NCBI GenBank assembly: GCA_964499705.1 | Contig: CAZCME010000006.1 | Coordinates: forward strand, 62,001-126,000 | Length of the DNA stretch: 64,000 bases | Reading direction: 5' to 3' | DNA from: an uncultured bacterium | GTDB taxonomy: Bacteria; UBA8481 | In this document: positions 2,551-20,293 of the stretch, in pieces | Numbering within the stretch: position 1 is the first letter of the stretch | How the letters are laid out: every line of letters starts with the position of its first letter | Notes under the pieces: model-generated | What the model saw: only the letters and a program-made list of their open reading frames with translations | Told to the model about the DNA's origin: nothing | The model's database searches: none | Position numbers and translations under genes: made by a program

Positions 2551-3660
2551 TTATCTCCGCCGCCATGCCTTCCATGCGCTTCTCAGAGGCAGAAGCAGCG
2601 CATGCAGCAGTCCGCCGTACGCGGATCTCCTGAAGATGAGGCAGTCGCCTCTCTCCCGTAGATTCGATGTCCACTCCATCTTCCACGGGGCCGACGATCC
2701 GGTGATGTCGAATTCCCGCGCGCCGCGCCCGATCAGGTCGCGGACGATTTCGAACATGATGAGCTGACCTGGTCCACATTTGCGATAGGCCTCGTCGTAC
2801 GTCACTTTCGGCGAAAAATAGCGGCCCGCATGGAGGAAGCCATAATGCATCGCCACGACGCGGTCGCCGCAGCGGAGGAGATAGAGGGAGAGATATCCCC
2901 CTCGGGCCGCCGCTTCCGCCGCCATGTCATAGAAAAGCCTGGTCCGCTCCTCGCTGACGATCGATGTCTTCGCGCGGCCTTTCCATCCGCCGTGCTCGAG
3001 TTCGTAGAAGACGCGCAGGATTTCCGGATCCGCTCGATCGATCCGCTCCAGCCGGACCGGCCCCATCGCTTCAAGCTTGCGCATCTGGTTCCGGAGATTG
3101 CCCCGAAAGCTCGGCGTGGCGCGCGCGAGCACCGCGTCCACTCCGTCCTTCTTGTCCGGCAGGAGGATATACGGGCTCGGGGAGCCGGGCTTCAATCCGG
3201 CGGGATGACCGTCCCGGCGCGCAAGCGCCAGCAGTCCTTCCGCGGCAGTGCCACGCGGAACATTCTGAAGTTCGATGATGTCCCAGCCTCGCAGCGTCCT
3301 CAGGAAATTCCAGAGCTCCTGCTGGATCTTTGCAAGATCGCCGCCGGCGCCGTGGATGACGTTGTATCGGACGGAATGGCCGTTCGTCAGGCTATGGATG
3401 GTCCGCGCCGGCAACGGTCCGCGCCACGTCAATTCGAAACCGACCGGCAGCACGGCGCGCAGTCGCCCTTCCTCACGCAGCAGGACGAGGCATATTTCAC
3501 ATCCCGGCCGGAACGCCCGCGCCTGTGCGACAAACCATTCAGGCCGATAGAAGGGCTCGTCGCAGGGACCTTCCGACGCAAGCGAGCTCCACTCGTCCTT
3601 TATAGACTCGATGATCTCCACGCCGCCCCGCTTCATCTCGACCGAGAACGAGGATGTCAT
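2551..3660 (-). CDS. GNAT family acyltransferase (CelD/BcsL, FemAB-like)
   Basis: PFYRPEW, C-terminal GPGQLIM...REFDITGSSAPWKMEW; ATG at 3660 overlaps the upstream stop (ATGA); ORF-track start at 4422 is an overextension. Confidence 0.85.
   Translation of the reverse strand: MTSSFSVEMKRGGVEIIESIKDEWSSLASEGPCDEPFYRPEWFVAQARAFRPGCEICLVLLREEGRLRAVLPVGFELTWRGPLPARTIHSLTNGHSVRYNVIHGAGGDLAKIQQELWNFLRTLRGWDIIELQNVPRGTAAEGLLALARRDGHPAGLKPGSPSPYILLPDKKDGVDAVLARATPSFRGNLRNQMRKLEAMGPVRLERIDRADPEILRVFYELEHGGWKGRAKTSIVSEERTRLFYDMAAEAAARGGYLSLYLLRCGDRVVAMHYGFLHAGRYFSPKVTYDEAYRKCGPGQLIMFEIVRDLIGRGAREFDITGSSAPWKMEWTSNLRERGDCLIFRRSAYGGLLHALLLPLRSAWKAWRRR
2554..2593. repeat. Right copy of 40-bp direct repeat, forming the last 13 codons of the GNAT gene
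   Basis: tctccgccgccatgccttccatgcgcttctcagaggcaga. Confidence 0.9.
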
Positions 3661-4379
3661 CGAGGAGGACGACGGCAGATGAAATAAGGAGCCATGTCGA
3701 GAAGTCCGATAAGCGAAAGAGAGCGGACCCAACGGAATTTCCGCATCGTGACGATCTCTTCCAGTTGAAAACCGACCCGCTCCAGGGCTTCCTTCTCGCC
3801 GGCCGGCGTCGTCGCGTAGCGCAGGACCGCTCCGAACTCGGACCTGTTCTCCACGTAGGACCGCTCGCGGTCGCGGAAAATCACGCGGGCGAAGGGAAGA
3901 ATGTTCCGGGGTCTGCGGGGAAGAAAACGCGACATGGAGCTGAAGATGAAGAGGCCTCCGGGCCGGACGACGCGCCATATTTCGCGCATGGCTTCGATCC
4001 GTTTCGCGTACGGGTGAATGTAGTCGATCCCGTTCGCGGAAAAGACGACGACGTCGAAGGAATAGGGCTGGAACGCGAGCGAAACGGCGTCCATCGTGAA
4101 ATAGCGGGATGCTCCCGCGGTCGCTTTCGCGGCGGCGACCATGCCGAAGGAGTAATCCATCGCAACGACGGAGAGAGGACGCGATTCGAAATATCGCGTC
4201 GTGCGCCCCGCGCCGCAGCCGATATCGAGGAGCCGCGAGCCTGGCGGTATCCGGGAGAAGGCGATCTCCTCGCGCTCGTTCACACCCTCCCGACGATAGT
4301 GATCGACCGCGAGCGGCGTCTCGAACGCCCGCTGATTCCGGGCCGCGTGGTTCTCCCCGGACATGTCCGGTTTCTTCAC
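3657..4379 (-). CDS. Class I SAM-dependent methyltransferase (Methyltransf_11-like)
   Basis: LLDIGCGAGRT, MDYSFGM, SFDVV, RVVRPGGLF; GTG at 4379 overlaps the flippase stop (alternative ATG 4364). Confidence 0.85.
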   Translation of the reverse strand: MKKPDMSGENHAARNQRAFETPLAVDHYRREGVNEREEIAFSRIPPGSRLLDIGCGAGRTTRYFESRPLSVVAMDYSFGMVAAAKATAGASRYFTMDAVSLAFQPYSFDVVVFSANGIDYIHPYAKRIEAMREIWRVVRPGGLFIFSSMSRFLPRRPRNILPFARVIFRDRERSYVENRSEFGAVLRYATTPAGEKEALERVGFQLEEIVTMRKFRWVRSLSLIGLLDMAPYFICRRPPR

Positions 4380-5962
4380 GGAAGCTCGCTCCGGCCGGAA
4401 ACCGCGGATTCCCGGAGGACATGGCGGACGAGAAGCGCGTGCGCCGCCGGGCTCATCTGCCTCACGATGCTCATCTCCTGCTCGCTGAACCTGTGAAGCC
4501 GGAGCGTCAAGTAGGAGACGACCACCGCGTAAAGAGCGCCGGATCCGACAAGAGCGAAGACGTTCGTGCATCCGAGAAGGAGAGTCCCGATGCCGGCCAG
4601 GCTTGAAATCAATATGAGTTGGAGGAAGAACGCGGCGGGGAGTCGGACTCCGATATGTTTCCGCGCGATTCCGTATTCGAAGAGCGAAGAGAGGAATTTC
4701 GTGCCGCCCGTGGAGATCACCGCGCCGATCGCGCCGTAGCGGGGAATGAGGAGGATATTCAGGAGGAGGTTGGCGATGCCGTTCGCGCCGCGTATGAAAA
4801 GATAGGTTTTCTCCATCCGCAGGGGAAACGTGACATACACCGAAACCTTGCCGCCGAGAACGATCCCGAAGACGGTGAAGAGCGAGAAGGCCACGATGAG
4901 GGGCCTGCATCCCATGTAGGCATCCGTGTAGAAGATCCGGATGATGTTCTCCGCGTGGATCACGAGAAAAACATAGATGGGGACGGAGAGGAACGCGGAG
5001 ACCTTCGTCAGGAACGTCCAGGCATCGCGGAGCCCATCCATCCCGAATCGCGCGTGAGCCTCGGAGAAGATCGGCACGACGAGAAGCTGGACGACGGCCA
5101 GCAGGACGGAGCCGCCGGTGATCGCGAGCAGGTAGGCGATTTCGTAATAGGCGACGCTCGCGGAGTCGTGGACGTAGTAGAGAATCATGAAGATGTCGAT
5201 GCTCTTCAGCCGGAAGAACTGCAGGCTGTTGGCCAGCCACATGAGCGCGCCGAATCGCGCGACGCGACGGAGATCCATGGCGACGGGCGCGGTCAGGAAG
5301 ATTTCGCGGGATCGGAATCCATAACCGACGAGCTGGCTTCCGTGCACGATCATCATCAGGACGATGAGGTGCGGAACGGTCATGGTCCCCGTGAAGATCA
5401 TCGCGGCGACGCCGGCGAACTGGACGACGGAGACGAAAACTTCGACGGCGGAGTAGAAACGCATGTCCAGTCTCGCCATCACCATGAAAATGAAAGGATC
5501 CATGAGACTCCGGATGATGAACCATGCCGAGATCGCGAGCATGTTCTCCGCGATCCCGGCGCTCCCGATCGTGTCGGCGAACGGTTTCGCGAAGAGATGG
5601 ACAAGGACGAGGATGACCGCCATCAGAAGGAGCCTGCAGAAAAGGACACGGCGCATCATGTAGCTCAGTTCGCCGGGTTTCTGTTCCGCCTGGAGCCGGG
5701 GCAGCCAGGTGGAGATGATGGGCTGCGAACCCATCTCCGAGAACATCATCAGCATGTCGAGCATGCTGCCGATGGCGGCGTAGACTCCGTAGTTCTCGAC
5801 GCCGAGCGATCGGGCGACCATGATGGAGACGGCGAAGCAGATGAAGGTTCGGGCCGACATGCCGAACTGGCCCCAGAGCAGGCCGCTCAATGCCTTCCGG
5901 CCGAATCCGGTCCTGGAGTCCGTCGTCACGATCCGTCCGGCCTCAGGACGGGACCTTTCCAT
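4376..5962 (-). CDS. Wzx-type oligosaccharide flippase
   Basis: About 12-14 hydrophobic segments, ARSLGVENYG, LLIPRYGAIGA motif of MOP-family flippases. Confidence 0.9.
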   Translation of the reverse strand: MERSRPEAGRIVTTDSRTGFGRKALSGLLWGQFGMSARTFICFAVSIMVARSLGVENYGVYAAIGSMLDMLMMFSEMGSQPIISTWLPRLQAEQKPGELSYMMRRVLFCRLLLMAVILVLVHLFAKPFADTIGSAGIAENMLAISAWFIIRSLMDPFIFMVMARLDMRFYSAVEVFVSVVQFAGVAAMIFTGTMTVPHLIVLMMIVHGSQLVGYGFRSREIFLTAPVAMDLRRVARFGALMWLANSLQFFRLKSIDIFMILYYVHDSASVAYYEIAYLLAITGGSVLLAVVQLLVVPIFSEAHARFGMDGLRDAWTFLTKVSAFLSVPIYVFLVIHAENIIRIFYTDAYMGCRPLIVAFSLFTVFGIVLGGKVSVYVTFPLRMEKTYLFIRGANGIANLLLNILLIPRYGAIGAVISTGGTKFLSSLFEYGIARKHIGVRLPAAFFLQLILISSLAGIGTLLLGCTNVFALVGSGALYAVVVSYLTLRLHRFSEQEMSIVRQMSPAAHALLVRHVLRESAVSGRSELP

Positions 5963-7217
5963 CGTCGTGTGTCAGGTTCATGCCGCGCATCAAGTTCATG
6001 TGAATCCTGAATTTTCCGTTCAGGATCTTCCGGAGAAGGAGGATGACCTTTCCGAAGACGTAGGCGAGCGCGGGCATCGGATCCCTCCAGCTGAAAATGG
6101 CGTGCGTCTTCGAACCCCGGATCGACCGGATCCATTCCGGAATCGTCAGCTCGCCCCACTTCCACATGTAGAACGACGCGCGGATGTCGCTGACAGTCTG
6201 GATCCACTTGCGCCCTGTGTGACGCTGCGTGCGGTTCTCCGGAAGCGGCAGGCCGGCCTTGTCGCAGTACTTCGTCAGGAGAAGCTCCACGCCGCAGTCC
6301 TCGGCGAGCATGGAGCGGCCGGTGCCGCGTCCGATATTCGCCTCGATGACGAAATACTCGCCCGTCCGGTCGTCGCGTTTCATCTCGAGGTATCCAAGCC
6401 CGTGAAATCCGGGAACTCCCGTGAAGAGCCGCAATCCCTCCCGCAAAACGACATCGTCCCGGCATTCCTGGCCCAGACTCGTGTTGCCGATTCCCGGAGG
6501 CCACTGCCGCAGCTTTTTCGAGACGAACGTCGCGAGCGGTTTCGATCGGGCGTCGAAATAGCCGATGAACGAATAAAGCGAATCGTCCCCGCCGCTCACC
6601 CATTCCTGCACAATGAAATTTTCCGCCATGTCCCGGCACTGATCGTAGATTCCGAGAAATTCATCCCTCGTGGAGATCCTGTGCGCCTTGATGCCGAAAT
6701 AGGATTCGAGCCAAACGGCCGTCTTCACGGACGGCTTCAGGATGCACGGGAATCGGGCCTCGTCGAGAATCTTTTCCGCGTCTTCCCGCGAGGAGATGTG
6801 AAAAGTCCGCGGCACGAGGAAGCCGTTCTTCTGCGCGTGCCGGTGGAAGAGCGACTTGTCCGTCAGCATCTCCAGCATGTCATGCGGGGGCACGGCGATG
6901 TGAAAATAAGGCGCCAGCACCGCGCGATCGCGGGAGATGATATGCACGGTCTCGTCCCATGCTGGAAACAGGACGGCCTTCCGCGTCAGAGTCGAGCCGA
7001 ATTCAACGAGAGCGCGGGTCATCGCGTCGTTTCCGGCGTCGATATCCGTCCTGATGATCCGGCGGGGAGTGTTCGTCCTGCAGGCCCATGTCGTCGGATC
7101 CTTGACGACTCCCACGACGGGAACGCCACGCCACGCCAGGAGCCGCGCGGTCTGGAGCCCGGTTTCATTTTCCATTCCCAGGACGATTCCGCAGGGCTTC
7201 TCCTTGTCCAGGATCAC
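5943..7217 (-). CDS. ATP-grasp carboxylate-amine ligase (D-aspartate ligase-like); start uncertain
   Basis: DKSLF, FPCILKP, IVQEWVSGG, KLRQWPPGIG, EMKRDDRTG..VIEANIGR. Confidence 0.8.
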   Translation of the reverse strand: MILDKEKPCGIVLGMENETGLQTARLLAWRGVPVVGVVKDPTTWACRTNTPRRIIRTDIDAGNDAMTRALVEFGSTLTRKAVLFPAWDETVHIISRDRAVLAPYFHIAVPPHDMLEMLTDKSLFHRHAQKNGFLVPRTFHISSREDAEKILDEARFPCILKPSVKTAVWLESYFGIKAHRISTRDEFLGIYDQCRDMAENFIVQEWVSGGDDSLYSFIGYFDARSKPLATFVSKKLRQWPPGIGNTSLGQECRDDVVLREGLRLFTGVPGFHGLGYLEMKRDDRTGEYFVIEANIGRGTGRSMLAEDCGVELLLTKYCDKAGLPLPENRTQRHTGRKWIQTVSDIRASFYMWKWGELTIPEWIRSIRGSKTHAIFSWRDPMPALAYVFGKVILLLRKILNGKFRIHMNLMRGMNLTHDDGKVPS

Positions 7218-7404
7218 CGCAGGTACCCGGCTCGATGCGCTCGCGTCATGATCGCCATGATGAATTCCCCTGGATTTGCGAAGGTTGAACCACCTGAGGT
7301 AAATGTATAACCTCGGAGCGATTGAGTCAAAATCGGAAATGCCCCGGATGGGGCTTCCAGCGCGGATTGAACCGCGCCGGACGAATGCGCAGGAGGAGAA
7401 AACC

Positions 7405-7881
7405 ATGGAACCTAACGTTGTCTTCGAGGATCGATACTACGAGGTGATCGCTCCCCGATCTCCGTATAACTGCAGGGACGACGGAGGACATCTCATCCTC
7501 ATCAAGAAAGTTCCGGTACACGACAGGTCGGACCTGACGTGGCAGGAGGCGCTCGATTTCATGCGCATCTCCATGGCCGTCGGGCGCGCGATGTACGAAG
7601 TCGTCGGAGTGGAACGGATGAACTACGAAGATCTTGGCAACTGGGGACTCGACAGGCCCGGCGGATCGGTGATGCATCTTCACTTCATCGGCCGCGCGAA
7701 AGTGCAGATCCACCAGATCCGCGGCCACCATCTCGCGATCATGCCGCAGGGGCATCCGATCTACAGCGGCCACCTGAAGCCTTTCACGACCGAGGATGTT
7801 CTCGTCCTGCGAGCCAGGGTCGCGGATATTCTCCAGGAAGAAAAATACAGGCGGATGGCGGAGATGGCCGAAGTCGACTGA
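7405..7881 (+). CDS. HIT-family nucleotide hydrolase
   Basis: GHLILI, NY..LGN, variant triad VMHLHFIGR; strong RBS AGGAGG upstream of ATG 7405. Confidence 0.75.
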   Translation: MEPNVVFEDRYYEVIAPRSPYNCRDDGGHLILIKKVPVHDRSDLTWQEALDFMRISMAVGRAMYEVVGVERMNYEDLGNWGLDRPGGSVMHLHFIGRAKVQIHQIRGHHLAIMPQGHPIYSGHLKPFTTEDVLVLRARVADILQEEKYRRMAEMAEVD

Positions 7882-7962
7882 CGCGCGGCCTCTTTTTCCA
7901 GCCGCTTTCAACATTGCAACACTGTAACGTTGTCCCGCTCATCGCCGGGCTATGCTGGCGCG

Positions 7963-9165
7963 GTGAGCACGACAAAAAAGAAGATCGCGGTCCTTCATAT
8001 CCTCGCGCATTTGACCGCCTGGGACGGCATCTCCGCCATTCTTGACGTCCTCTTCCGAGGCCTGGATCCGGACCGCTTCCGTCTCGGGATCTGCACGTTG
8101 ACCGAGCGCGAGGACGAGGTCCTCGACGCCTTCCGCTCGCCCGCCATAGAGTTGTTCGCGCTGGGGCGTTCCGCTCATGCATTCGATCCGGCCACGACAG
8201 GCGCGGTTCTTTCCGTCCTTCGCCGATTCCGCGCCGACATCGTCCACACTCATCGAAACAAGGGCAATTACCATGGTCGCGTCGCCGGCCGGCTGGCCGG
8301 CAACGTCCGCATCGTGACCACGCATCACGATATGAAGGACGCGCGATTTTCGCCGCATGCCTACGCGCGGGAAGCCATGCGACGCGACGAACGGGAAGTG
8401 CATGATTCCCCGCCCGATTTCGCCGCGCGCTGTCTCTACCCCTGGCTTAACGTGCGCATGAACCGCTGGAACGACCGGGTCATCGCGGTCTCGCAGGCCT
8501 GCCGCGATCTCCACGCTCCCGATCCGGACGATCCCCGATTCGAAATCGTTCATGCTCCCTTCGACGAACTCGCGTTTCGTCCCGAGCACCATCGCGGCAG
8601 CGGCGCGGGTTGCGTCCTCGGATCCGTGGGGCGCCTGAATTCGCCGAAGGGTCACCGTCATCTCGTCGAGGCCATGAAGAAGGTCATCGCGATTCGTCCC
8701 GAGGCGCGTCTTTCCATCATCGGCGAGGGGCCGTGCAGGAAGGATCTGGAACGCCTCATCCGCGCGGGCGGCCTCGCACCGCGCGTGGAGCTTCGAGGCG
8801 CTCTCCCGCACGGGATCGCGATGCACGAGGGCATCGACATTCTTGTCCATCCTTCCATTTCGGAAGGAGGATGCGCGCTGGCGGTGCTGGAAGCCATGGG
8901 CTCCGGACTCCCGGTCATCATGTCCGACCTGCGGAGCCTGCGCGAAATCTTCGAGGATGTTCCGGATCCGCCCGCCGTCTTCGTTCCTCCGGCTGACCCG
9001 GCCGCGCTCGCCGATGCCATCGTCCGGCTCCTCGACAATCCCGCGCGCGCGACCGCGATCGGCCTTGAGGCTTCACGACATGTCCATCGGCATTTCACCT
9101 CGCGGATCCATGTCGAGCGCATGACGCGCCTCTACGAAAAGCTCGCGGAGCCGCGATCTTCCTGA
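7963..9165 (+). CDS. Glycosyltransferase family 4 (GT-B)
   Basis: DIVHTH, VIAVS, VGRL..PKG, EG..LAVLEAMGSGLPVI. Confidence 0.9.
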   Translation: MSTTKKKIAVLHILAHLTAWDGISAILDVLFRGLDPDRFRLGICTLTEREDEVLDAFRSPAIELFALGRSAHAFDPATTGAVLSVLRRFRADIVHTHRNKGNYHGRVAGRLAGNVRIVTTHHDMKDARFSPHAYAREAMRRDEREVHDSPPDFAARCLYPWLNVRMNRWNDRVIAVSQACRDLHAPDPDDPRFEIVHAPFDELAFRPEHHRGSGAGCVLGSVGRLNSPKGHRHLVEAMKKVIAIRPEARLSIIGEGPCRKDLERLIRAGGLAPRVELRGALPHGIAMHEGIDILVHPSISEGGCALAVLEAMGSGLPVIMSDLRSLREIFEDVPDPPAVFVPPADPAALADAIVRLLDNPARATAIGLEASRHVHRHFTSRIHVERMTRLYEKLAEPRSS

Positions 9166-9207
9166 ACGGACGCCGGAGCATGACGGGCAAAGACACCCCC
9201 TTCGCGG

Positions 9208-10086
9208 TCAAGAAATCTCCGGCAGATATCGTTTTTCCGCCTCCCGCAGCTCCGGCATGTTGGAGAGTCGAAACACTTCCTTCAGGGTCGCGACCTTCTC
9301 CTCGATCGAGAGGAGCGATTTCTTCTCGAAGAGTTCGGCGGCGATCGATTTCATGGTGAGGATGTTCGCCCGCAGGATGTGGTTGGCCCAGATGATCATG
9401 CTGACTCCGGCTTCCTCCCAGACGGACGTGGGCGTCCTGTAGAACATCGTCGGGACGATGATGACGGGAAGGGCATTCTTCCATTCCGTGAGGAACGAGA
9501 GGATCTCCTCGGGCCCCGGCTTGTTGCTGTGTATGAAGATCGCATCCGCGCCCGCGTCGCGATACGCGTGCGCGCGCCTCAGCGCTTCTTCGAGCCCAAG
9601 GCCGGCGATGAAGGCCTGAACGCGGGCGATGACGCAGAAGTCGGGATCCTTCTGCGTGTCCTTCACGGCCCGGATCTTGCCGGCGAATTCCGCGGACGAA
9701 GCGAGAGGCATCTGAAGCTCAAGCAGGGAATTGGTCTTCGGGAAGAGATTGTCCTCGATGCACATCGCGGCGACCCCGCGATGTTCCAGCTTGGCGACGA
9801 GACGCCGGGCCGTGTTGAAGTCTCCGTAACCCGTGTCCGCATCGAGCATGATCGGTACCTGCGTCGCGTCGCACATGAACTCGACGATCTCGAGCGTCTG
9901 CGTCCAGCTCAGCTCATTGTTGTCCCGGACGCCCATGGCACTGGAGATCCCGAGCCCTCCCGCCCAGATGCCCTTGAATCCTGCTTCCTCCACGATCCGC
10001 GCGGAAAGCGCGTCGTAGGCATGGCAGACAAATTCCGTGGACGGAGATTCGATCATTTGCCGGAAAAGCCGCGTCTTGGTCGTCAT
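9208..10086 (-). CDS. pepM: Phosphoenolpyruvate mutase (divergent)
   Basis: ICL/PEPM fold motifs GVRD.NE, LDADTGYG, EDNLFPKTNS (canonical EDKxFPKxNS), IIVPT; ATG 10086 overlaps the upstream stop. Confidence 0.8.
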   Translation of the reverse strand: MTTKTRLFRQMIESPSTEFVCHAYDALSARIVEEAGFKGIWAGGLGISSAMGVRDNNELSWTQTLEIVEFMCDATQVPIMLDADTGYGDFNTARRLVAKLEHRGVAAMCIEDNLFPKTNSLLELQMPLASSAEFAGKIRAVKDTQKDPDFCVIARVQAFIAGLGLEEALRRAHAYRDAGADAIFIHSNKPGPEEILSFLTEWKNALPVIIVPTMFYRTPTSVWEEAGVSMIIWANHILRANILTMKSIAAELFEKKSLLSIEEKVATLKEVFRLSNMPELREAEKRYLPEIS

Positions 10087-11138
10087 GAGAGGGAACCAAT
10101 CCTGGCCCTGAGCGCCGCCGGATCGATTTCCTGATGGATCGGGAAACAGACCGTGCGCTTCCAATTTTCAAGCGCGTCCGAGCCCCGCTCGACAAGCTCC
10201 CGGGGCAATGTCGGCCAGGAATGGACATCGATTTCGTTTCGATACCCCCAGTCGAACCATGCGCGGCTCTCGTCCGCCGAACGCGTCCACGCCGGAAACA
10301 CCATGGGCGCGCACGTGCCGTCGATTTCGCGGTGGACGGGTTCGATGTCCTGCCGCTCCGCCCACTCCCGCCAGATCCCGTAGAGTTCCCGGCGCCGGCG
10401 CGCCGCATCGTCCAGGTCCTGGCGCTCGAGAAACTGATCCGTCTTGATGTCCATGTTCCAATCCCTCCTCACGGTGTCACGGAAATGATCCTGCGAATCA
10501 TACGGCAGGGGCGGAAGAAATTTTCTCCGCAGCCAGTTGCTCTGTTCCAGGAATCGCCTCTTGTGAAATCTCATCTGCTCCCGGATCAGGTTCATCGGTT
10601 CCAGTCCGGAAAGCGCCGTTTTCGGGAGAACCAGGCCATCCCTCGCGTAGAGATATGCGCCATTCACGACGCCGAACGTTTTCCGCGGAGTCGAAAATCC
10701 GATGTCTCCGAAGCGCCCCAGCAATAATTCATACCGTCGTCCACCGTAACCATGGGCGTTGTCCTCGACGAGAAAGATCGAACGCGCACGGCAGAAGGCC
10801 TGGAAACGATCGATGTCCTGCGGTATGCCGAAATAATGAATCATGATAAGCGCCTTTGTATCCGAGGTCGCGGCGGATTCCAGGTGTTCCCAGTCCGGTG
10901 TGAAATCGCGACGAATCCTGTAATAAACCGCGTTCATGCCCTTTTCACGGAGAGGCACCAGAAGAGAACGGCACGTCATTTCGGGCACAAGGATTTCCGC
11001 GCCTTGCCCCAGGCCAAGCGCTTGCAGGCCGTATTTCAGGGCTGTCCGCCCATACGCGAATTTCCGCGGCGTTTCGTCGAGGATTGGCTGACGTCCGAGA
11101 AATTCCGTGTACGCGACGGACGGCTTCCTGTGGATCAA
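10083..11138 (-). CDS. DegT/DnrJ-like PLP-dependent aminotransferase (divergent)
   Basis: GRTAL, IHYFG, EDNAH, FSTPRKT (PLP lysine position); TTG overlaps the racemase stop. Confidence 0.8.
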   Translation of the reverse strand: MIHRKPSVAYTEFLGRQPILDETPRKFAYGRTALKYGLQALGLGQGAEILVPEMTCRSLLVPLREKGMNAVYYRIRRDFTPDWEHLESAATSDTKALIMIHYFGIPQDIDRFQAFCRARSIFLVEDNAHGYGGRRYELLLGRFGDIGFSTPRKTFGVVNGAYLYARDGLVLPKTALSGLEPMNLIREQMRFHKRRFLEQSNWLRRKFLPPLPYDSQDHFRDTVRRDWNMDIKTDQFLERQDLDDAARRRRELYGIWREWAERQDIEPVHREIDGTCAPMVFPAWTRSADESRAWFDWGYRNEIDVHSWPTLPRELVERGSDALENWKRTVCFPIHQEIDPAALRARIGSLS

Positions 11139-11833
11139 GAAGATCGCCTCGGCTCTTCCAGGCCTTTCCCGATCCGGATCAATCTCTCGATGTATACCCG
11201 GTTCGCGCTCACGATCGTGTATCCCGCCCGCTTTCCTTCGGAAAATGCCATCGGCAGTTCGGAGCAGGCCAGGAGGAGGCAGTCGATGCTCGAATACTTC
11301 GTCGCGATCCGGCTGAGCAAGCGTTCCTTCTCCGATTCATGCGGCGAGCCGGTCTTCAATTTCTCGATCAGCTCCACGGCCAGGTCGTTGTCCTCTTTCT
11401 CCATGTAGCAGGCCTGAGGCAGGAACCGATCGTAGACGCGCCGCGTCACCGTCACGAACGCGCCCATGATGAGCACTCTCCGATAACCCGCGAGGTGCGC
11501 GGAGACCGTCTCCACCATGTCGATCCAGGGAATCTCCAGAGCGGGCGCGACGTCGGGATAGAAATAGTGAGCGGAGTTGCAAGGCACCGCGATGAAATCG
11601 CATCCGGCCGCGGCCAGTTTTTTTCCGGAACGGATCATCGCGTTCACCGGGCTCTCTTCCCCGTACAGGAGCGCTCTCGTGCGGCTCGGAATCGTCACGT
11701 CGTTGTCGATGATCACGTGGAGATGGTCCCAGTCCTTCGCGGCGTCCGTGCGCCGCACCAGTTCGGAGAAGAAGTCGGCCGTGGCGGCGGGGCCCATGCC
11801 CCCGATAATGCCCAGGACCCTGCCGGCGATCAT
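11135..11833 (-). CDS. Aspartate/glutamate racemase family protein
   Basis: GIIGGMGP.AT, two catalytic cysteine motifs PCNSAH and LACSELP. Confidence 0.9.
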   Translation of the reverse strand: MIAGRVLGIIGGMGPAATADFFSELVRRTDAAKDWDHLHVIIDNDVTIPSRTRALLYGEESPVNAMIRSGKKLAAAGCDFIAVPCNSAHYFYPDVAPALEIPWIDMVETVSAHLAGYRRVLIMGAFVTVTRRVYDRFLPQACYMEKEDNDLAVELIEKLKTGSPHESEKERLLSRIATKYSSIDCLLLACSELPMAFSEGKRAGYTIVSANRVYIERLIRIGKGLEEPRRSS

Positions 11834-12612
11834 GAACGCTCGGTCACGGCCATACCCGCGGTCGATTGATCGAATCGGAAGATCTCCTCGGCGCGCCGGA
11901 GATCGTTCAGATCGTCAATTTCGTACCAGGGAAGTCCTGTGATGTCGCAGATGGAAATGGGCGACTCCTCATAATGCCGCGCAATCACCTGCTCAAACCA
12001 CGTCCCCGTCTTTCCAGCGCCGACGTCGTCGCCCAGCCAGCGGCCGAGCGCTTTCCCGAAATCGGCGTGGAGAAGCAGGACGCCGCCGGACTTGAAATAG
12101 TTGGCGCGATATTCGTCGAGCTTCTGCTTCACGACGCGGAGCTCGACGATCCGTCCGGACGGATCCGTGACCATCATGGAACCCGTTATATCGGGCGTGA
12201 ACCGTACGCCCGCCCAGCAGCTTCGGGATGCGCCCATCGCGAATACCGCCTTCAGCACATCCGGCCCGAAGATGCAATCCGCCTCGATGAGGAGGCTTCC
12301 TTCAGCGAGATACTCCCGCCCCAGCCATGTCGAATACATCGAATTCGTGGTCCGGTAGACCTCGCTCTCGATGTAGGTCACTTTCATCGGACCGAACGCG
12401 CTTCCGTATCTCTTCATGATCGCTTCCTTAAGGTATCCGACAATGATCGCGCAATCGCTGATGCCGGCTTTCTGAAGCTCTTCGAGCGTGTTGTCGAGTA
12501 GCGGCTTCCCGTTCACTTCCGTCAGCGATTTCGGCATCTGGCTCGTGATGGGCATGAGCCGAGTTCCCATCCCGGCGGCCAGGATGACAGCTTTCTGGAT
12601 CGGCTCACTCAC
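11830..12612 (-). CDS. NTP transferase, phosphocholine/phosphonate cytidylyltransferase (LicC/PntC-like)
   Basis: AVILAAGMGTRL..PKSL, TNSMYS, IEAD, WYEIDDLND. Confidence 0.85.
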   Translation of the reverse strand: MSEPIQKAVILAAGMGTRLMPITSQMPKSLTEVNGKPLLDNTLEELQKAGISDCAIIVGYLKEAIMKRYGSAFGPMKVTYIESEVYRTTNSMYSTWLGREYLAEGSLLIEADCIFGPDVLKAVFAMGASRSCWAGVRFTPDITGSMMVTDPSGRIVELRVVKQKLDEYRANYFKSGGVLLLHADFGKALGRWLGDDVGAGKTGTWFEQVIARHYEESPISICDITGLPWYEIDDLNDLRRAEEIFRFDQSTAGMAVTERS

Positions 12613-12629: not shown

Positions 12630-13301
12630 TTAATATGAGGTGGGATTCGCGGAGCGGGTGGATTGCGGTTGTTCGGCCCGAGAGGACGCGGCCTCGGCGG
12701 AGCGGGCGGGCGGGTGTTCAGACTGCCGTGGGGCGGCGACCGGCGAAGGCTTGGACGTAGCCCGGGCTTTGAAGGGCCATGCCGGCTTCGGTGTTTCCGG
12801 CGCGGGGCTCGGGGCCGCCTCGACGGACGTGTCGGCGGGTTTCTTGCCGCGGAGCTGTTTCCAGCCCTCCTTGAGAATCTCGATATCGTCCGCCGTGAGC
12901 GCGGCATCCGGATGGAGCGTCACGTACTGCGCCGGAGGCATTTCGTCGTCCGCGACCTCCGCCAGCATTTTCTTGAAGACTTTCCGGCGGGATTTTGCCG
13001 ACATGTCATCCCAATTCGAGAGATTCAGCTCTTTCCTGCCCTTTTCGATATCCCGGTCGATGACGGAAGACGCATAGGGCAGCGCGGAATACCACGGATA
13101 TCGAGTCTCGTTGCTGTGGCAGTCGAAACAGGCTTTTCGCAGCACGCCTTCCACGTCGGCGGAAACGATCGGCTGCGTGTGCCGCTTCGGCGGAGAAACG
13201 CGGGACTGCGAAAGCGCCCACGAGCCCACAAAGCAGAGGTTAAAGAAGGCAAACATGGATATCAACAGGTAAACGAATATTTTCCGTTTCGAAATAACCA
13301 T
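12630..13301 (-). CDS. Membrane-anchored c-type haem-binding protein (Haem_bd-like) with Pro/Ala-rich tail
   Basis: N-terminal TM, CFDCH, ETRYPWY, GRKELN, EMPP. Confidence 0.85.
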   Translation of the reverse strand: MVISKRKIFVYLLISMFAFFNLCFVGSWALSQSRVSPPKRHTQPIVSADVEGVLRKACFDCHSNETRYPWYSALPYASSVIDRDIEKGRKELNLSNWDDMSAKSRRKVFKKMLAEVADDEMPPAQYVTLHPDAALTADDIEILKEGWKQLRGKKPADTSVEAAPSPAPETPKPAWPFKARATSKPSPVAAPRQSEHPPARSAEAASSRAEQPQSTRSANPTSY

Positions 13302-13386
13302 GCGTTTATCCTACAATAACGGCGATCTCAGTCCAACTTATTTTTCACGTTTTCGCTGCAAAAAAGGCGCTCCATTCACCGAACCA

Positions 13387-13884
13387 TCATTTCAAGGGAA
13401 TCAGACTCACATTGCTAATGATCCACTCTCCGTCCGCCCCTTTTCGTGCCCTCCCCCATACGACCAGGTTTTGACCCGGAATAATCCGCCATTCGCGTTC
13501 CTTGAATCCCTCGTACCGTCTCGCGCGCAGATTTCTGAAGCCCTCCTCATCGACCTCCTGAAGAGGCGTATCCAGCTTCACGTCGCCATCCGAAAGCCGG
13601 ATCCGCAGTCCCTTGGCGTATGCCACGATATCGATCAGGCGCCTCTTCCGCCAGGGAGTCCTGCGTCTGGAGGCAAGTCCCCAGGCGCGATAATGATAGG
13701 CGCAGCACATCCGATGCTTCACGGGCGAGCACAGAAGTTCCTCGCATTCCAGTTGCCCCATCAGGCAGACCGGTCCCAGCCTGATCCCTTCTTTTAGCGT
13801 CGTCGGCCGGGGACGCATGAAACCATAAGAGACCAGCGATTCGCGAATCCTCTCGAGAAAGCGAAGAAGGATGTTCTTGTCCAT
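13387..13884 (-). CDS. Hypothetical protein (weak resemblance to GIDE-like beta domains)
   Basis: Fills the intergenic space in operon orientation; L.SP...C.AY.Y and G..LVVWG patterns. Confidence 0.5.
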   Translation of the reverse strand: MDKNILLRFLERIRESLVSYGFMRPRPTTLKEGIRLGPVCLMGQLECEELLCSPVKHRMCCAYHYRAWGLASRRRTPWRKRRLIDIVAYAKGLRIRLSDGDVKLDTPLQEVDEEGFRNLRARRYEGFKEREWRIIPGQNLVVWGRARKGADGEWIISNVSLIPLK

Positions 13885-13898
13885 GGATCAATAAGCGG

Positions 13899-15254
13899 TC
13901 AGGAAGCGGGATCGACGGCGGAGCTCCGGTCGATCCGCTCCATCACGGGCACATCGAACTCCCGTTCTTCCGCGGGGATCGTCCCGAGCCTGTCCATCAC
14001 GAGAGCCCGGGCCCGGCGCGTTCCGGATATTTTCCAGGTCGCGCGCGCCGCCTCTCTCCCGCTTCCCCCGCTCCCGGCATGCCTGGTTGCTCTCCGCAAG
14101 GAGCCCAGCCCGAATCGGACGAAGAGCGTGAACAAGACCTTCATCATGTGGCGGGGCGTCAGGAGGACATTGTTCAGCCACTGGTTGGCGAGCGGACACG
14201 CGCATCGCCCCTCCGCGATGTAGCGCTTGGAAGCCAGGGCGCGATCAGAACCGAGCAACCGGAAGACGTCGAAATCCCACTCCCGAACATTGCCAAGCGC
14301 CTGGTCGCTTCCCAGGACGCAGCATGGCCAGATCTCGCCATTGTAGTTCATATGAATATTGGAGTGCCCCGCGTAGCAAGGTGTCACCTGCCTGCGTTCC
14401 TTCAGGATCCGCACGGCCACGTCGTAATACACGAGCCGGACGGCTTCCGTCGTTCGCGTCAGAAGCGCCTTGCCGGAAACATTCTCCAGGATCTTGCGCT
14501 TGAAATTTTCCGTCAACGCCTCATACACGTCCGCCGGCGGCGTGATGGGATCTCCCAGGTTGAAAAATTCCGATCGCTGCTCCGCGATCTCGTGCCGGTA
14601 CGATTCCACGCCGCGCTCGTGCACCCAATCCTCGATGGCATCGAGATGATCGATGTTGTGATTGGAGATCACCGTGCCGAGATCGACGTGCAGCCTTGGA
14701 TTCTTCCGCCGCAGCGCCAGCAGCACGTCGAGCGTCTGCTCGAGCCGGTGGAAATTCCCCGCGTAGCCGCGCACGTGATCATGCAGGGTTCCGACGCCGT
14801 CGATCGACGGCTTGATGGAGATCGGAACCGAGATGTCGGCCAGTTCATCCATGTACTTGAGGATCTGCTCCGTGGTTCGCCCGATCGTGAGCGGGGAGAT
14901 GGCATTGGTGGGGATATGGATCAGGCGAGGCTTGAGATGCACCAGGGCCAGGCGAACGATTTCCGCGAGATCCCGCCTCAGGAACGGTTCTCCACCGGAA
15001 ATGTTGAAGAAATACACCGGCCCCAGCGACCGGAATACCTTCTCGATCTCCTCCAGCGTCAGGTTTTCCTTCGCCAGTCGCGGATTCGCGAGAAAGCGGT
15101 TTCCGATATTGCAGGTCAGGCACCGGCTCTGGCAGGCCGCCGTCACCGAGAACGTGAGCGTCAACGGGCGCGTCGTCCGGATCCAACCCCGGCGCGCCGC
15201 CTCATACAGGATCGCGCGCGGCGCGACGGTCGTCAGGTAGTCCCGCATCTTCAC
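13899..15254 (-). CDS. Radical SAM protein with SPASM/twitch domain
   Basis: CQSRCLTC, SGGEPF, SIDG, CYAG...GEIWPCC, CAC; GTG overlaps the upstream stop. Confidence 0.9.
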   Translation of the reverse strand: MKMRDYLTTVAPRAILYEAARRGWIRTTRPLTLTFSVTAACQSRCLTCNIGNRFLANPRLAKENLTLEEIEKVFRSLGPVYFFNISGGEPFLRRDLAEIVRLALVHLKPRLIHIPTNAISPLTIGRTTEQILKYMDELADISVPISIKPSIDGVGTLHDHVRGYAGNFHRLEQTLDVLLALRRKNPRLHVDLGTVISNHNIDHLDAIEDWVHERGVESYRHEIAEQRSEFFNLGDPITPPADVYEALTENFKRKILENVSGKALLTRTTEAVRLVYYDVAVRILKERRQVTPCYAGHSNIHMNYNGEIWPCCVLGSDQALGNVREWDFDVFRLLGSDRALASKRYIAEGRCACPLANQWLNNVLLTPRHMMKVLFTLFVRFGLGSLRRATRHAGSGGSGREAARATWKISGTRRARALVMDRLGTIPAEEREFDVPVMERIDRSSAVDPAS

Positions 15255-16027
15255 GTGGTCTTCTCCCCCAGCACGAACGTCAGGTGCGCATAGAACAGTT
15301 TCACCAGGAAGGGCAGCGGAACCGCTTCGCAGAGATACATCGCCCTGATCTTGAGGGGATATCGACCGGTCTTCATCCATTCCAGGGTACGACTGTCCCA
15401 CTCGATCCTGTTCAGGTCGACGTTCTTGCGATGGAGCTTCATGTCGCGGATCCCGAGCGAGTCCGGGTAAGGCGGACAATCGACCGCGCCGCGTTCCGCG
15501 ATGTGGAGCCCCTGGTCACGGAACAGGTTCATCACGAAAAACGGATTCATGTACCGGATATCGCCATGGTTCCAGGGCACGTCGAAGATCCGATGAGCCA
15601 TGCGGTGCGAGAAAAATCCGGGATTAAAGCGATTCACGGCGATGAAGAGCACATCCCGGCGGCTGAGCCGGATCATTTCCTTCAGGAGCGCGGGCTTGTC
15701 GGCCTGCTGCGAAAGAGACATGAAATTCCAGACCAGGTCGTAGGACCCGGAAGCCAGTTCCGTCGCGTCCGGGCGCCCGCACTCGATATGATGAACCGGA
15801 AGATTCAGCCGCGTCCACGCCGGTCGCGAGCGCGGCTCGGAATTCACAAGTGTCACTTCGCATCCGGCCTCGGCGAACGCGAGCGAATAGAGGGAGGGCA
15901 TGGCCTTCTCCCCTTTCGCCGGAATCTCCAGGACGGTCCGGATTCCGCGCTCGCGCACCAGCCGCCGGAAGAGCTTGCGGAGGGCGTAGCGTTCGAAATC
16001 CAGTCCCTTGCCTTCCATCTCAACCAC
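15251..16027 (-). CDS. SAM-dependent methyltransferase-like protein
   Basis: Rossmann-like pattern VLEIPAKG, SYDLVWN, LLKEMIRLS. Confidence 0.65.
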   Translation of the reverse strand: MVEMEGKGLDFERYALRKLFRRLVRERGIRTVLEIPAKGEKAMPSLYSLAFAEAGCEVTLVNSEPRSRPAWTRLNLPVHHIECGRPDATELASGSYDLVWNFMSLSQQADKPALLKEMIRLSRRDVLFIAVNRFNPGFFSHRMAHRIFDVPWNHGDIRYMNPFFVMNLFRDQGLHIAERGAVDCPPYPDSLGIRDMKLHRKNVDLNRIEWDSRTLEWMKTGRYPLKIRAMYLCEAVPLPFLVKLFYAHLTFVLGEKTT

Positions 16028-16153
16028 GTTGTCCGACCTCGCAGGAATCCCGCGCAGGAAGCGTCGCCGTCGCCGCCGGATGTATCGCGGCGACGAACGA
16101 ATCCTGTCGCTGGGGAGGCAATAAGTATAGTCTTAACCGCGGTGACTGGACAG

Positions 16154-17158
16154 GTGAGTCTTTTCTCGGATTTCCGCGATGCAGGAACAATCCTGGTGAC
16201 CGGAGGCAGCGGCTTCATAGGGGGCAGGCTCGCGTGCGCGCTTCTCGACGCCGGTCTGCGGGTGCGCGTCCTCTCGCGCGCCCCGTCACAGCTGGCCGGC
16301 CGCGCGGCTCCGGAAATCTTCATCGGCGATCTTCGGGACGAGGCGAGCCTTGCCGGCATCGAGGAGGGCGTGACCCATGTTTTTCACGCCGCCGCGCTCC
16401 TCGGCACCTGGGGAACGCCCGACGCCGATCTCGTGGAAGTGAATGTCAGGGGCACGGCGAGGCTGCTCGCCCGGTTCTCATCCTCCTCCTCGCTGAGGCA
16501 ATTCGTGCACGTGAGCGCTGGCGGCGTGACGGGTCCAATGGATCATGTGCCGGCCGATGAAGAGACTCCATGCCGCCCCGTGACGGCATACGAGCGTACC
16601 AAGTATGAAGCGGAACTGTTGGCACTGTCCCGCGCGGCTGACATGGGGATCCCTCTCGTCGTGGCTCGACCGACATTTACATACGGCCCCGGCGATCCGC
16701 ACAAGCTTCCGCTCTTCCGCGCCGTGCGGCGCGGACACATGGTCTTCCTGGACGGCGGCATGAGCGTGAACCATCCGGCGTACATCGACGATGTAATCGA
16801 GGGCCTGCTGCTCGTCTCCGCGCGAGGCCGAAATCGCGATGTGTACATCATCGGAGGCACGCGCCCCGTCTCCAAGCGCGAGTTCGTCTTCGCCATCGCC
16901 GATGCCCTGGGCGCGCCTCGCCCGCGAGTCTCCATTCCGAGCTGGGCGGCACGGCCCGCCGCCCGGGGTATGGAGGCGCTCGGATCCGTGCTTGGTTTCG
17001 AGCCGATCCTCACGACTTCGAGGGTGCTGATGATGAGTGGAAACTTCGGATACTCGATCGAGAAGGCTGTCCGCGAAGTCGGGTTCCTGCCGCGCACAGA
17101 CATCACGAAGGGAATCCATGACACGGTGGACTATTACAGGCGCAGGAATCTGATATGA
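16154..17158 (+). CDS. NAD-dependent epimerase/dehydratase
   Basis: ILVTGGSGFIG, YERTK (YxxxK), RPTFTYGPGD; ORF-track start at 15284 is an overextension. Confidence 0.9.
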   Translation: MSLFSDFRDAGTILVTGGSGFIGGRLACALLDAGLRVRVLSRAPSQLAGRAAPEIFIGDLRDEASLAGIEEGVTHVFHAAALLGTWGTPDADLVEVNVRGTARLLARFSSSSSLRQFVHVSAGGVTGPMDHVPADEETPCRPVTAYERTKYEAELLALSRAADMGIPLVVARPTFTYGPGDPHKLPLFRAVRRGHMVFLDGGMSVNHPAYIDDVIEGLLLVSARGRNRDVYIIGGTRPVSKREFVFAIADALGAPRPRVSIPSWAARPAARGMEALGSVLGFEPILTTSRVLMMSGNFGYSIEKAVREVGFLPRTDITKGIHDTVDYYRRRNLI

Positions 17159-17231
17159 TCCGACCGTCCCCGGAAAACAGTCGGATAGGCGATCCGTCGG
17201 GCGGATCAACGACACGCGCAAAGGAATTCTC

Positions 17232-19157: not shown

Positions 19158-20287
19158 CTCTCGATCGCTTCCACCATTCTGTCCCACGAATAGCGGTCCC
19201 GGTCGGCCGCAATCTCCTTCCGAAAAGATTCCGGATCTTCCGCCTCGAAATATCTCCGAATCGCTCCCGCCAGAGCAGGAGGATCGCACGGCGGCACCAG
19301 GAATCCCGTCTTCCCGTCGCGGATCGCCTCGGGCAATCCGCCCACGGTCGTTCCCACCACGGGCTTGCCGAATCCGTACGCGATCTGCACCACGCCGCTC
19401 TGGCTCGCGCTGACGTATGGAACGACCACAAGATCGGCGGCCTGGAAATAGAGAGGTACTTCCTCATTCGCCACATAACGATCGACGATCGTCAACTGCC
19501 CGCGCGCGCTCAGCCGCGCCATCTGGTCGCCATACGCCTCGCGGCCTTCGTACCATTCTCCGACCACCAGCAGATGATAGTCGTCCTGAAGAGGAAGCTG
19601 GAGTACAGCCTCGAGCAGAAATTCAAGCCCTTTGTAAGCGCGGATGAATCCGAAAAAAAGAACGACGCGTCGCCTTTCCATCGCCAATGTCCGGCGGGCT
19701 TCGTCGCGCGTCATGACTCCCCGGTCGCCAAATGTCTCGTACGTCGGATGCGGCGAAACGAGGACGCGGGCGTCCGGCATGAGAGCCAGGAGTTCCGCGC
19801 GGTCGCGCTGCGAATGAACGATGAATCCCGCGTCGCGGCTCCACGCATACTTAAGCAGCGCCCGATCCAGGACCGAGTCCTCGTGCGGTCGCACGTTGTG
19901 ACAGAGAAATAAGCACGGGATTCCTGCGAAACGGTGCGCCAGCCGCGCGACCGTGCCGAAGCTCGGCGCGAAGAAAGGATGCCACCATGAAATGACGAGG
20001 AGCTCCGGAGCGAACGCGCGGATACGTCGGTATGCCCGAAACCACGTCGCGGGATTGAGCGAATCCAGGCACGCGTCATGGTCCTCGCTGATCTCCTCGC
20101 CGGAATGATCCTGCTGCGTCACGCCTGGAAACAGGAGCCCGGGGTACTGCCGCGAGAGCGAGATGAAGGTGACGTCGTGCTTCTTGCGGAGATGTCGGCA
20201 CAAGAGCGTCGTGTAATGAGCGATGCCGCCCCGGAAGGGATGTGTCACGCCGAGCAGGGCGATCCTCACCCGTCGTGGAGTCGCCAC
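19148..20287 (-). CDS. Glycosyltransferase family 4
   Basis: GGIAHY, FFGFIRAYKG, SQSGV, VGGLPE. Confidence 0.92.
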   Translation of the reverse strand: MATPRRVRIALLGVTHPFRGGIAHYTTLLCRHLRKKHDVTFISLSRQYPGLLFPGVTQQDHSGEEISEDHDACLDSLNPATWFRAYRRIRAFAPELLVISWWHPFFAPSFGTVARLAHRFAGIPCLFLCHNVRPHEDSVLDRALLKYAWSRDAGFIVHSQRDRAELLALMPDARVLVSPHPTYETFGDRGVMTRDEARRTLAMERRRVVLFFGFIRAYKGLEFLLEAVLQLPLQDDYHLLVVGEWYEGREAYGDQMARLSARGQLTIVDRYVANEEVPLYFQAADLVVVPYVSASQSGVVQIAYGFGKPVVGTTVGGLPEAIRDGKTGFLVPPCDPPALAGAIRRYFEAEDPESFRKEIAADRDRYSWDRMVEAIESYI

Positions 20288-20293
20288 CGCGGA

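Follow-up and report, generated by a model that had tools for sequence, protein, structure and literature searches.

The equilibrium of phosphoenolpyruvate (PEP) phosphomutase (PepM) strongly favours PEP, and the enzymes accepted as pulling the reaction are a decarboxylase, an aminotransferase, a 2-hydroxyacid dehydrogenase and homocitrate-synthase-like enzymes (PMC12871164). Transamination is among the accepted pulling steps (PMC12871164, PMC8942020), and VlpB (PF02826) is the proposed reductase that turns phosphonopyruvate into phosphonolactate (PMC8942020). Here we describe a pepM operon and a nearby ATP-grasp ligase gene in a 64,000-nt stretch of DNA from an uncultured bacterium of the UBA8481 lineage (assembly GCA_964499705.1, contig CAZCME010000006.1, positions 62,001 to 126,000 of the forward strand; hereafter, the window). 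In other genomes a VlpB-like gene adjoins pepM; here the slot directly upstream of pepM is occupied by the genes for a DegT-family aminotransferase and a racemase, translationally coupled. Our preferred reading, to which we assign a probability of about 0.4, is that the locus represents a local version of a recurrent glycan-phosphonylation module composed of PepM, a phosphonopyruvate-consuming enzyme and an ATP-grasp ligase, with D-phosphonoalanine as the acid that is made and attached.

The window belongs to contig C6 of a 4.67-Mb genome (45 contigs, 96% complete). GC content in the region is about 61%, and spurious open reading frames (ORFs) are therefore numerous. Four consecutive ORFs on the minus strand have clear family matches in Pfam and NCBIfam profile scans; these and the ligase gene are as follows.

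11830-12612, minus strand: LicC/PntC-like nucleotidyl (probably cytidylyl) transferase, 260 aa, GTG start (PF00483, 51.5 bits)
11135-11833, minus strand: two-cysteine Asp/Glu-type amino-acid racemase, 232 aa (PF01177, 89.4 bits)
10083-11138, minus strand: divergent aminotransferase of the DegT/DnrJ/EryC1 family, dependent on pyridoxal phosphate (PLP), 351 aa, TTG start (PF01041, 68.3 bits)
9208-10086, minus strand: PepM, 292 aa, ATG at 10086 (PF13714, 200.8 bits; TIGR02320, 337.8 bits)
5943-7217, minus strand: ATP-grasp carboxylate-amine ligase, named from homologue labels, start at GTG 7217 or ATG 7175 (no Pfam match)

Each of the three junctions in the pepM operon, read directly from the sequence, is a 4-base overlap: ATGA at 11833-11830 between transferase and racemase, TTGA at 11138-11135 between racemase and PLP gene (whose start is the TTG), and ATGA at 10086-10083 between PLP gene and pepM. 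The coupling by overlapping stop and start codons that an earlier note on this DNA had described was therefore found at all three. A start listed for pepM at TTG 10164 is probably too long, ATG 10086 being the one that yields the 4-base overlap. The transferase gene heads the operon, its GTG start lying 17 bases past the stop of a Haem_bd gene.

The PepM protein scores 337.8 bits with the curated equivalog TIGR02320 (cut-off 319.55), as opposed to 202.9 bits with the sister model for phosphonopyruvate hydrolase (cut-off 374.4) and 130.6 bits with PrpB; these scores rule out its assignment as phosphonopyruvate hydrolase or methylisocitrate lyase. PepM from Mytilus (1m1b) matches residues 3-290 (E 2e-111, 374.9 bits), and in the alignment of the two the LDADTGYG, FPKTNS, ARV and HS stretches, which we take to form the PepM active site, are retained. 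Judged by these comparisons, the window enzyme is a genuine PepM. A genome-wide profile search found only this one.

No phosphonopyruvate decarboxylase (Ppd) was found in the genome. The best match to TIGR03297 reaches 32.2 bits (cut-off 312.5) and comes from a 346-aa ORF on another contig that, read by eye, is the beta subunit of a 2-oxoacid:ferredoxin oxidoreductase (KorB-like); a Ppd elsewhere in the genome was accordingly rejected. Nor does the genome contain an above-cut-off match for PhnW, the best hit attaining 162.1 bits against a required 360.8. Of the canonical pathway to 2-aminoethylphosphonate (AEP), PepM-Ppd-PhnW, both the decarboxylase and the AEP transaminase are hence absent from the genome. 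The earlier note had seen no Ppd-like gene next to pepM, an observation that extends genome-wide, and the source of AEP that it had considered, a ppd gene elsewhere, finds no counterpart here. Contig C6 has no PF00155 aminotransferase (all eight matches of the genome lie on other contigs) and no VlpB-like reductase (best matches on C28, C7 and C9). With no PhnW above cut-off and no PF00155 on C6, no PLP enzyme other than the DegT-like one was found in the locus. Separately, at positions 20790-22867 of contig C28 of this genome (G000), the class V aminotransferase that gives the best PhnW-like match (162 bits) adjoins the best VlpB-like match (37% identity); the two are most simply viewed as a serine-pathway pair.

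The ATP-grasp ligase has no Pfam match, weak matches to NCBIfam ATP-grasp models and nothing significant in the PDB. A search returned 772 homologues with identities up to about 50%, and some of them bear the label D-aspartate ligase (from JGI) or carboxylate-amine ligase. The earlier note's description of a D-aspartate-ligase-like protein agrees with these source labels, and the family recurs beside PepM in other organisms. A metagenome scan yielded five loci with PepM, two of them about 2 kb long. A ligase ortholog lies directly downstream of pepM in two of the five (L084, 48% identity; L088, 42%), the PepM of L084 being the closest among the five to that of the window (60% identity); in the remaining three Ppd is adjacent or fused. 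Of 401 genomes sampled broadly, 12 have a ligase match, the window's genome included. The closest match, in genome G054, sits 4.7 kb from a PepM-like gene, and ligase orthologs occur in 22 of 167 genomes from the phylum of G054, which is not that of the window.

For comparison, 28 ligase-ortholog loci were fetched from one other phylum. Their ligases are 40-51% identical to the window protein in 27 cases and 33% in the last (L158). A PepM or PepM-like gene is present in 15 of the 28 loci and a VlpB-like D-2-hydroxyacid dehydrogenase gene in 15; both are found in 14, with the VlpB-like gene adjoining pepM, and the ligase gene directly follows PepM in six. Seven loci end at contig ends, and six of these are among the 13 without PepM. 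The set also holds GT2, GT4, MBOAT, Wzx, CotH and VTC genes, and the GT4 gene of the window shares a blast cluster with GT4 genes of 22 loci. No LicC-like transferase was found in the 28 loci, one weak match apart. The ligase family is thus a recurrent partner of PepM, and from this linkage the acid that the ligase handles is probably derived from PepM. The window resembles the reductase-PepM-ligase module in having PepM and a ligase of the same family in one locus; it differs in having no D-2-hydroxyacid dehydrogenase gene by pepM.

Several features of the comparison loci deserve mention in their own right. Two paralogous versions of the VlpB-like/PepM/ATP-grasp module were seen (L104, L132-L158), with two ligase matches each in six genomes. 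PepM of type 1, about 60% identical to that of the window, carries EDK. Type 2 PepM-like proteins have EDN(H/V)FPKRNS, and the one member scanned, from L104, falls short of the TIGR02320 cut-off at 270 bits; mining by motif or by cut-off would therefore miss this type. Locus L153 has kept the VlpB-like gene, the ligase and the neighbours, with no PepM detected; the gene could have been lost or broken. By tblastn, 18 of the 28 loci have a conserved gene for a protein of about 400 aa that matches no Pfam family (L104:16115-17320 and relatives); wherever both genes are seen, it lies immediately downstream of the ligase gene. Its assignment as a Fem-type transferase was rejected in view of a Walker-A-like GWAKGGKTE common to four aligned members. 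The genome of the window has no homologue of it.

The remaining operon proteins were compared with known families in the same way. The best solved relative of the transferase is LicC, the CTP:phosphocholine cytidylyltransferase (1jyk), which is matched over its full length (residues 4-246, 81.5 bits). PntC (6pd1) matches the N-terminal part, residues 5-116, at 37 bits, and models of the RmlA, GalU and GlmU types likewise match over the N-terminal part only. The PntC-type label given earlier holds in this sense, with LicC aligned throughout and PntC at the start. The transferase falls in a family that activates phosphonates, and CTP-dependent activation of a phosphonate is predicted here. The racemase exceeds the cut-offs of PF01177 (89.4 bits, cut-off 31) and TIGR00035 (113.1 bits, cut-off 93.1), is matched by the solved aspartate racemases 5b19 and 1jfl at about 100 bits, and has both catalytic cysteines, C85 and C190, invariant in 13 aligned sequences; its earlier designation as an aspartate racemase is well founded at the level of the Asp/Glu family. 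It forms a subfamily of its own, whose close members (43-64% identity) are all metagenome proteins. As for the PLP enzyme, it matches PF01041 well above cut-off (68.3 bits, cut-off 19.8), residues 30-148 covering profile positions 48-167 of 360 only. All 25 aligned members of its subfamily share residues D126, N127, A128, H129, G130 and K153; K153 is the PLP lysine and D126 the aspartate of the EDxAH motif, as expected of the family. A search for this subfamily gave 139 proteins, with a best non-self match of 47% identity.

In the scheme that we infer from these assignments, substrates, step order and product included, PepM would make phosphonopyruvate, which the PLP enzyme would transaminate to L-phosphonoalanine, possibly after cytidylylation, on CMP-phosphonopyruvate. 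The racemase would convert L-phosphonoalanine to the D form. The ATP-grasp enzyme would then link D-phosphonoalanine through an amide bond to a glycan or its precursor, and/or the LicC-like enzyme would activate the phosphonate with CMP. The ligase might activate the carboxylate of the phosphonate acid, or else a sugar carboxylate that is then attacked by the amine, as in Cj1438. The decorated sugar would be exported by the Wzx flippase with the glycosyltransferases of the locus. Elsewhere the D-specific reductase would deliver a D-2-hydroxy acid, whereas aminotransferase and racemase would here deliver a D-2-amino acid, so that the same C2 configuration would be offered to one ligase family. 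By this analogy, placing an aminotransferase and a racemase where the reductase stands gives the racemase its reason and fits the D-phosphonoalanine idea. The logic of VanH/VanA versus Ddl resembles such a switch between D-hydroxy and D-amino acids; if the scheme is true, one ligase family takes D-2-hydroxy or D-2-amino C3 phosphonates in the manner of VanA versus Ddl. The complete assignment, in which the DegT-type enzyme is the (CMP-)phosphonopyruvate aminotransferase, a dedicated racemase makes D-phosphonoalanine and a D-aspartate-ligase-like ATP-grasp enzyme joins it to a surface glycan, is rather unlikely to be right in every part. To our knowledge it would provide the first amino-acid racemase specific for phosphonates and the first case of a glycan decorated with a D-amino phosphonate.

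A number of results weigh against this reading. At the place where 1m1b has EDKLFPKTNS the window PepM has EDNLFPKTNS, the sole change being K to N; EDKxxxxxNS, which we take to be the PepM signature of phosphonate genome mining, is thus interrupted. A tree of 19 PepM sequences gave no supported clade for the window PepM and placed it neither within nor outside the VlpB-linked type; its terminal branch is long (0.87 versus a median of 0.073), which marks it as unusually diverged even from its nearest relatives. The best NCBIfam model for the racemase is CuyB cysteate racemase (NF052483), at 165.1 bits, below the cut-off of 190. Eight members of the subfamily score 134-160 bits, and the two proteins that pass, at 262-274 bits, are labelled one cysteate racemase and the other aspartate racemase. 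The cysteate-like hint is weak because the subfamily stays at 134-165 bits while proteins above cut-off reach 262-274; with an aspartate-racemase-labelled protein also scoring high, the match was downgraded as evidence for a racemase specific for sulfonates or phosphonates. No close ortholog of the racemase occurs in two sets of 401 genomes each (best 35-36% identity), neither a racemase nor a DegT-like gene was found in any of the 28 ligase loci, and no second pepM-racemase locus came to light among the loci and genomes searched. Lastly, the genome has no LicD-type transferase, and LicD was rejected as the user of a CMP-phosphonate.

The PLP enzyme bears the greatest part of this doubt. It belongs to PF01041, not to the PF00155 family of PalB/PnaA-type enzymes. 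Its predicted model (pLDDT 95.3) has WecE, perosamine synthase, ArnB, WbpE and PseC as nearest folds (TM 0.61-0.71; Foldseek probability 1.00 to WecE, ArnB and perosamine synthase), all of them DegT-family sugar aminotransferases or dehydratases. In 80 loci with homologues, sampled from reference genomes with neighbours taken within 10 kb, no racemase and no convincing PepM was found (one weak match, in L018: 25%, 57 bits), and three genomes whose homologues are close (41-42% identity) lack PepM. An ORF of FemAB/Acetyltransf_6 type, the type being that of scanned cluster representatives, adjoins the homologue in at least 13 of the 19 best loci; genes for GT2, polysaccharide deacetylase and Wzx proteins are frequent nearby as well. 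The closest reference-genome homologue (42% identity) lies in a CDP-glucose pathway locus, L003, with a glucose-1-phosphate cytidylyltransferase (376 bits) and a CDP-glucose 4,6-dehydratase (478 bits), both above cut-off. From the sugar-locus contexts, the CDP-glucose genes and the genomes without PepM, the ancestral role of the subfamily is therefore probably the amination of a nucleotide-linked sugar, and this forms the chief evidence against the transaminase step. In a separate observation, the DegT-like and Acetyltransf_6-like genes are apparently fused into a 707-aa ORF in one locus (L011:9907-12030), which suggests joint action of the two proteins in that subfamily. The case for an Arn-like pathway as the usual setting of the subfamily is weak, with ArnT-like and YdjC genes together in 1 of 80 loci and ArnC-like genes, at any coverage, in 12.

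These data lend themselves to a division of labour in which the DegT-like enzyme makes a nucleotide-linked amino sugar as the amine acceptor, a housekeeping aminotransferase transaminates phosphonopyruvate, the racemase yields D-phosphonoalanine, D-aspartate or D-glutamate, and the ATP-grasp enzyme acylates the amino sugar with that acid. The nearest folds, the sugar loci with FemAB-like, GT2 and deacetylase genes, the L003 pathway and the PepM-less genomes all point this way, as do the eight PF00155 aminotransferases elsewhere in the genome and the ArnT-like, ArnC-like, HpnA-like SDR and YdjC genes at 16139-22167 of the window. Yet this arrangement leaves the locus with no dedicated consumer of phosphonopyruvate, despite an equilibrium that strongly favours PEP (PMC12871164), while the PLP gene is tied directly to pepM by a 4-base overlap. 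The full-length match of the transferase to LicC, and its N-terminal match alone to RmlA, GalU and GlmU models, also argue against it, as does the single locus among 80 in which ArnT-like and YdjC genes accompany a homologue. We regard it as a doubtful explanation that nevertheless deserves serious weight. The habit of DegT-family enzymes, judged from match titles, of using nucleotide-linked ketones could also be accommodated if cytidylylation came first: the LicC-like enzyme would make CMP-phosphonopyruvate, release of pyrophosphate would pull PepM, and the DegT-like enzyme, treating this compound like a CDP-keto sugar, would make CMP-phosphonoalanine, with the racemase serving another substrate or the freed amino acid. 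The cytidine-nucleotide sugar pathway at L003 and the position of the transferase at the head of the operon are consistent with this order of events. FrbH is a further precedent for an enzyme acting on CMP-phosphonates, beside Fom1 (below). The racemase would be left without a clear role, the genome has no LicD-type transferase, and we know of no cytidylyltransferase that acts on phosphonopyruvate. Fom1 provides precedent for CMP-phosphonate enzymes; the characterised PntC enzymes prefer an amine, AEP (PMC6697681). We consider cytidylylation before transamination very improbable.

It could also be that the genes have no common product: the racemase would feed D-aspartate or D-glutamate to the ATP-grasp enzyme, the DegT-like enzyme would make an amino sugar, PepM would be idle or feed another enzyme, and the overlaps would reflect operon compaction only. 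PepM was found in none of 40 related genomes and, given its long branch, may be a recent arrival; its EDN in place of the EDK of 1m1b, and the lack of any linkage of racemase or DegT-like gene to PepM in the other loci searched, are in keeping with such a mosaic. Against it stand the pairing of the ligase family with PepM, seen in 15 of 28 loci and in two of five metagenome loci, and the motif stretches conserved in the 1m1b alignment. EDN itself is present in eight type-2 PepM-like genes whose VlpB-like and ligase neighbours have been kept. A mosaic seems to us improbable. Returning to the D-phosphonoalanine reading, the earlier note's proposal of a D-phosphonoalanine glycan modification keeps its PepM, its transferase family, its racemase, its ligase linkage and its glycan setting; its identification of the PLP enzyme as a phosphonopyruvate transaminase is not supported, in view of the family, the folds and the PepM-less homologues described above, and the association of pepM with a racemase was seen at this one locus.

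The wider surroundings include a second tight operon on the minus strand, 2 kb beyond pepM, which comprises the ATP-grasp gene and three others, and two plus-strand ORFs between both operons.

7930-9165, plus strand: GT4 glycosyltransferase, convergent with pepM (PF13692, 102.3 bits; PF00534, 90.2 bits)
7405-7881, plus strand: possible divergent HIT-like protein, start at 7303 or 7405 (Pfam HIT below cut-off)
4376-5962, minus strand: Wzx-type polysaccharide flippase (PF13440, 54.3 bits; PF01943, 36.1 bits)
3657-4364, minus strand: methyltransferase dependent on S-adenosylmethionine (SAM), 235 aa (PF08241, 68.1 bits)
2551-3660, minus strand: FemAB-like Acetyltransf_6 GNAT, 369 aa (PF13480, 118.4 bits)

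The ATP-grasp gene overlaps at its end with the start of the flippase gene. Ligase, flippase and GNAT, placed 2-6 kb from the pepM operon by the earlier note, lie 2 to 6.6 kb away. By its gene content this is a glycan locus. The HIT-like ORF (7303-7881, plus strand) matches Pfam HIT at E 0.035 (15.2 bits, below cut-off) and has an Atlas feature score of 0.94 to clusters with HIT in 13-15% of members; no solved relative was found, nor any homologue in the comparison loci. A HIT protein handling nucleotides would be of interest beside a cytidylyltransferase. Upstream of the pepM operon, at 12630-16027 on the minus strand, are genes for a Haem_bd protein and a radical SAM/SPASM protein, and a weak methyltransferase match. 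Positions 16139-22167 hold an Arn-like gene set: an ArnT-like GT-C and an ArnC-like GT2, which score 120.7 bits (with the lipid IV(A) Ara4N transferase model) and 168.5 bits, each below cut-off, together with an HpnA-like SDR, a GT4 and a YdjC/HpnK-like deacetylase. The minus-strand ORF at 22244-22729, interrupted by a masked run of N at 22310-22319, encodes a short protein whose Asp/Glu-rich tail is very long.

Altogether, the gene content points to a candidate decoration of a surface glycan with a phosphonate amino acid, of a kind so far undescribed. Two features would be unusual: a route to phosphonoalanine with a DegT-family enzyme instead of a class I aminotransferase, and a racemisation step. 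The ATP-grasp family to which the route would be tied is found with PepM in the cell-envelope loci of other phyla, and this link suggests that C3 phosphonate acids may be attached to glycans in a general way. Confirmation of the route would widen the chemistry of bacterial surface phosphonates, make enzymes for D-phosphonoalanine production available and supply new markers for genome mining, namely the ligase, the racemase and PepMs of the EDN type, presumably rejected by the EDK motif rule.

The nearest described systems each share part of this arrangement. The Valinophos-type VlpA/VlpB phosphonolactate branch with its cell-envelope module has, like the window, PepM and an ATP-grasp enzyme of the same family in polysaccharide loci with GT4, GT2 and Wzx genes; it has a reductase where the window has an aminotransferase and a racemase, the window having a LicC-like transferase in addition. 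In the Pnt pathway a LicC-family transferase is likewise part of the pepM operon, PntC activating AEP, but the Pnt clusters studied make AEP by means of Ppd and an AEP transaminase, both absent from the genome of the window. Aslfm of Enterococcus faecium is a D-aspartate ligase that works with an aspartate racemase on D-aspartate, with a peptidoglycan precursor as target. Here too an Asp/Glu-type racemase would feed a D-acidic amino acid to an ATP-grasp enzyme, the link of the window ligase being through homologue labels alone; unlike Aslfm, the window genes stand in a glycan locus with PepM. CuyB of Bilophila wadsworthia belongs to the same PLP-independent two-cysteine family and is the best NCBIfam model for the window racemase, which at 165 bits falls short of the cut-off of 190; cysteate is the sulfonate counterpart of phosphonoalanine (PMC11193023). 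In the capsule locus of Campylobacter jejuni, the C-terminal ATP-grasp amidoligase of Cj1438 joins serinol phosphate or ethanolamine phosphate to a sugar carboxylate (PMC11800379), whereas the window ligase stands alone as a protein and has no Pfam match. The phosphonoalamide branch, like the window, has PepM without Ppd, a proposed transamination as the pull and then ATP-grasp ligation (PMC8942020, PMC11867202); its aminotransferase (PalB/PnaA-type) is of PF00155, that of the window is of the DegT family, PF01041, with no PF00155 on the contig, and its products are small peptides where the window has a glycan locus. The main texts of the phosphonoalamide papers, supplements apart, contain the words racemase and cytidylyltransferase zero times, and no racemase is mentioned in the main texts (again without supplements) of the branch-point inventory (PMC8942020) and the 2024 phosphonoalamide paper. 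Literature on phosphonoalanine with a racemase, on phosphonoalanine with polysaccharide and on phosphonolactate described no such pathway in the portions of text covered. In conclusion, the parts of this locus are all of known kinds, and their combination, seen in one instance, appears to be new.

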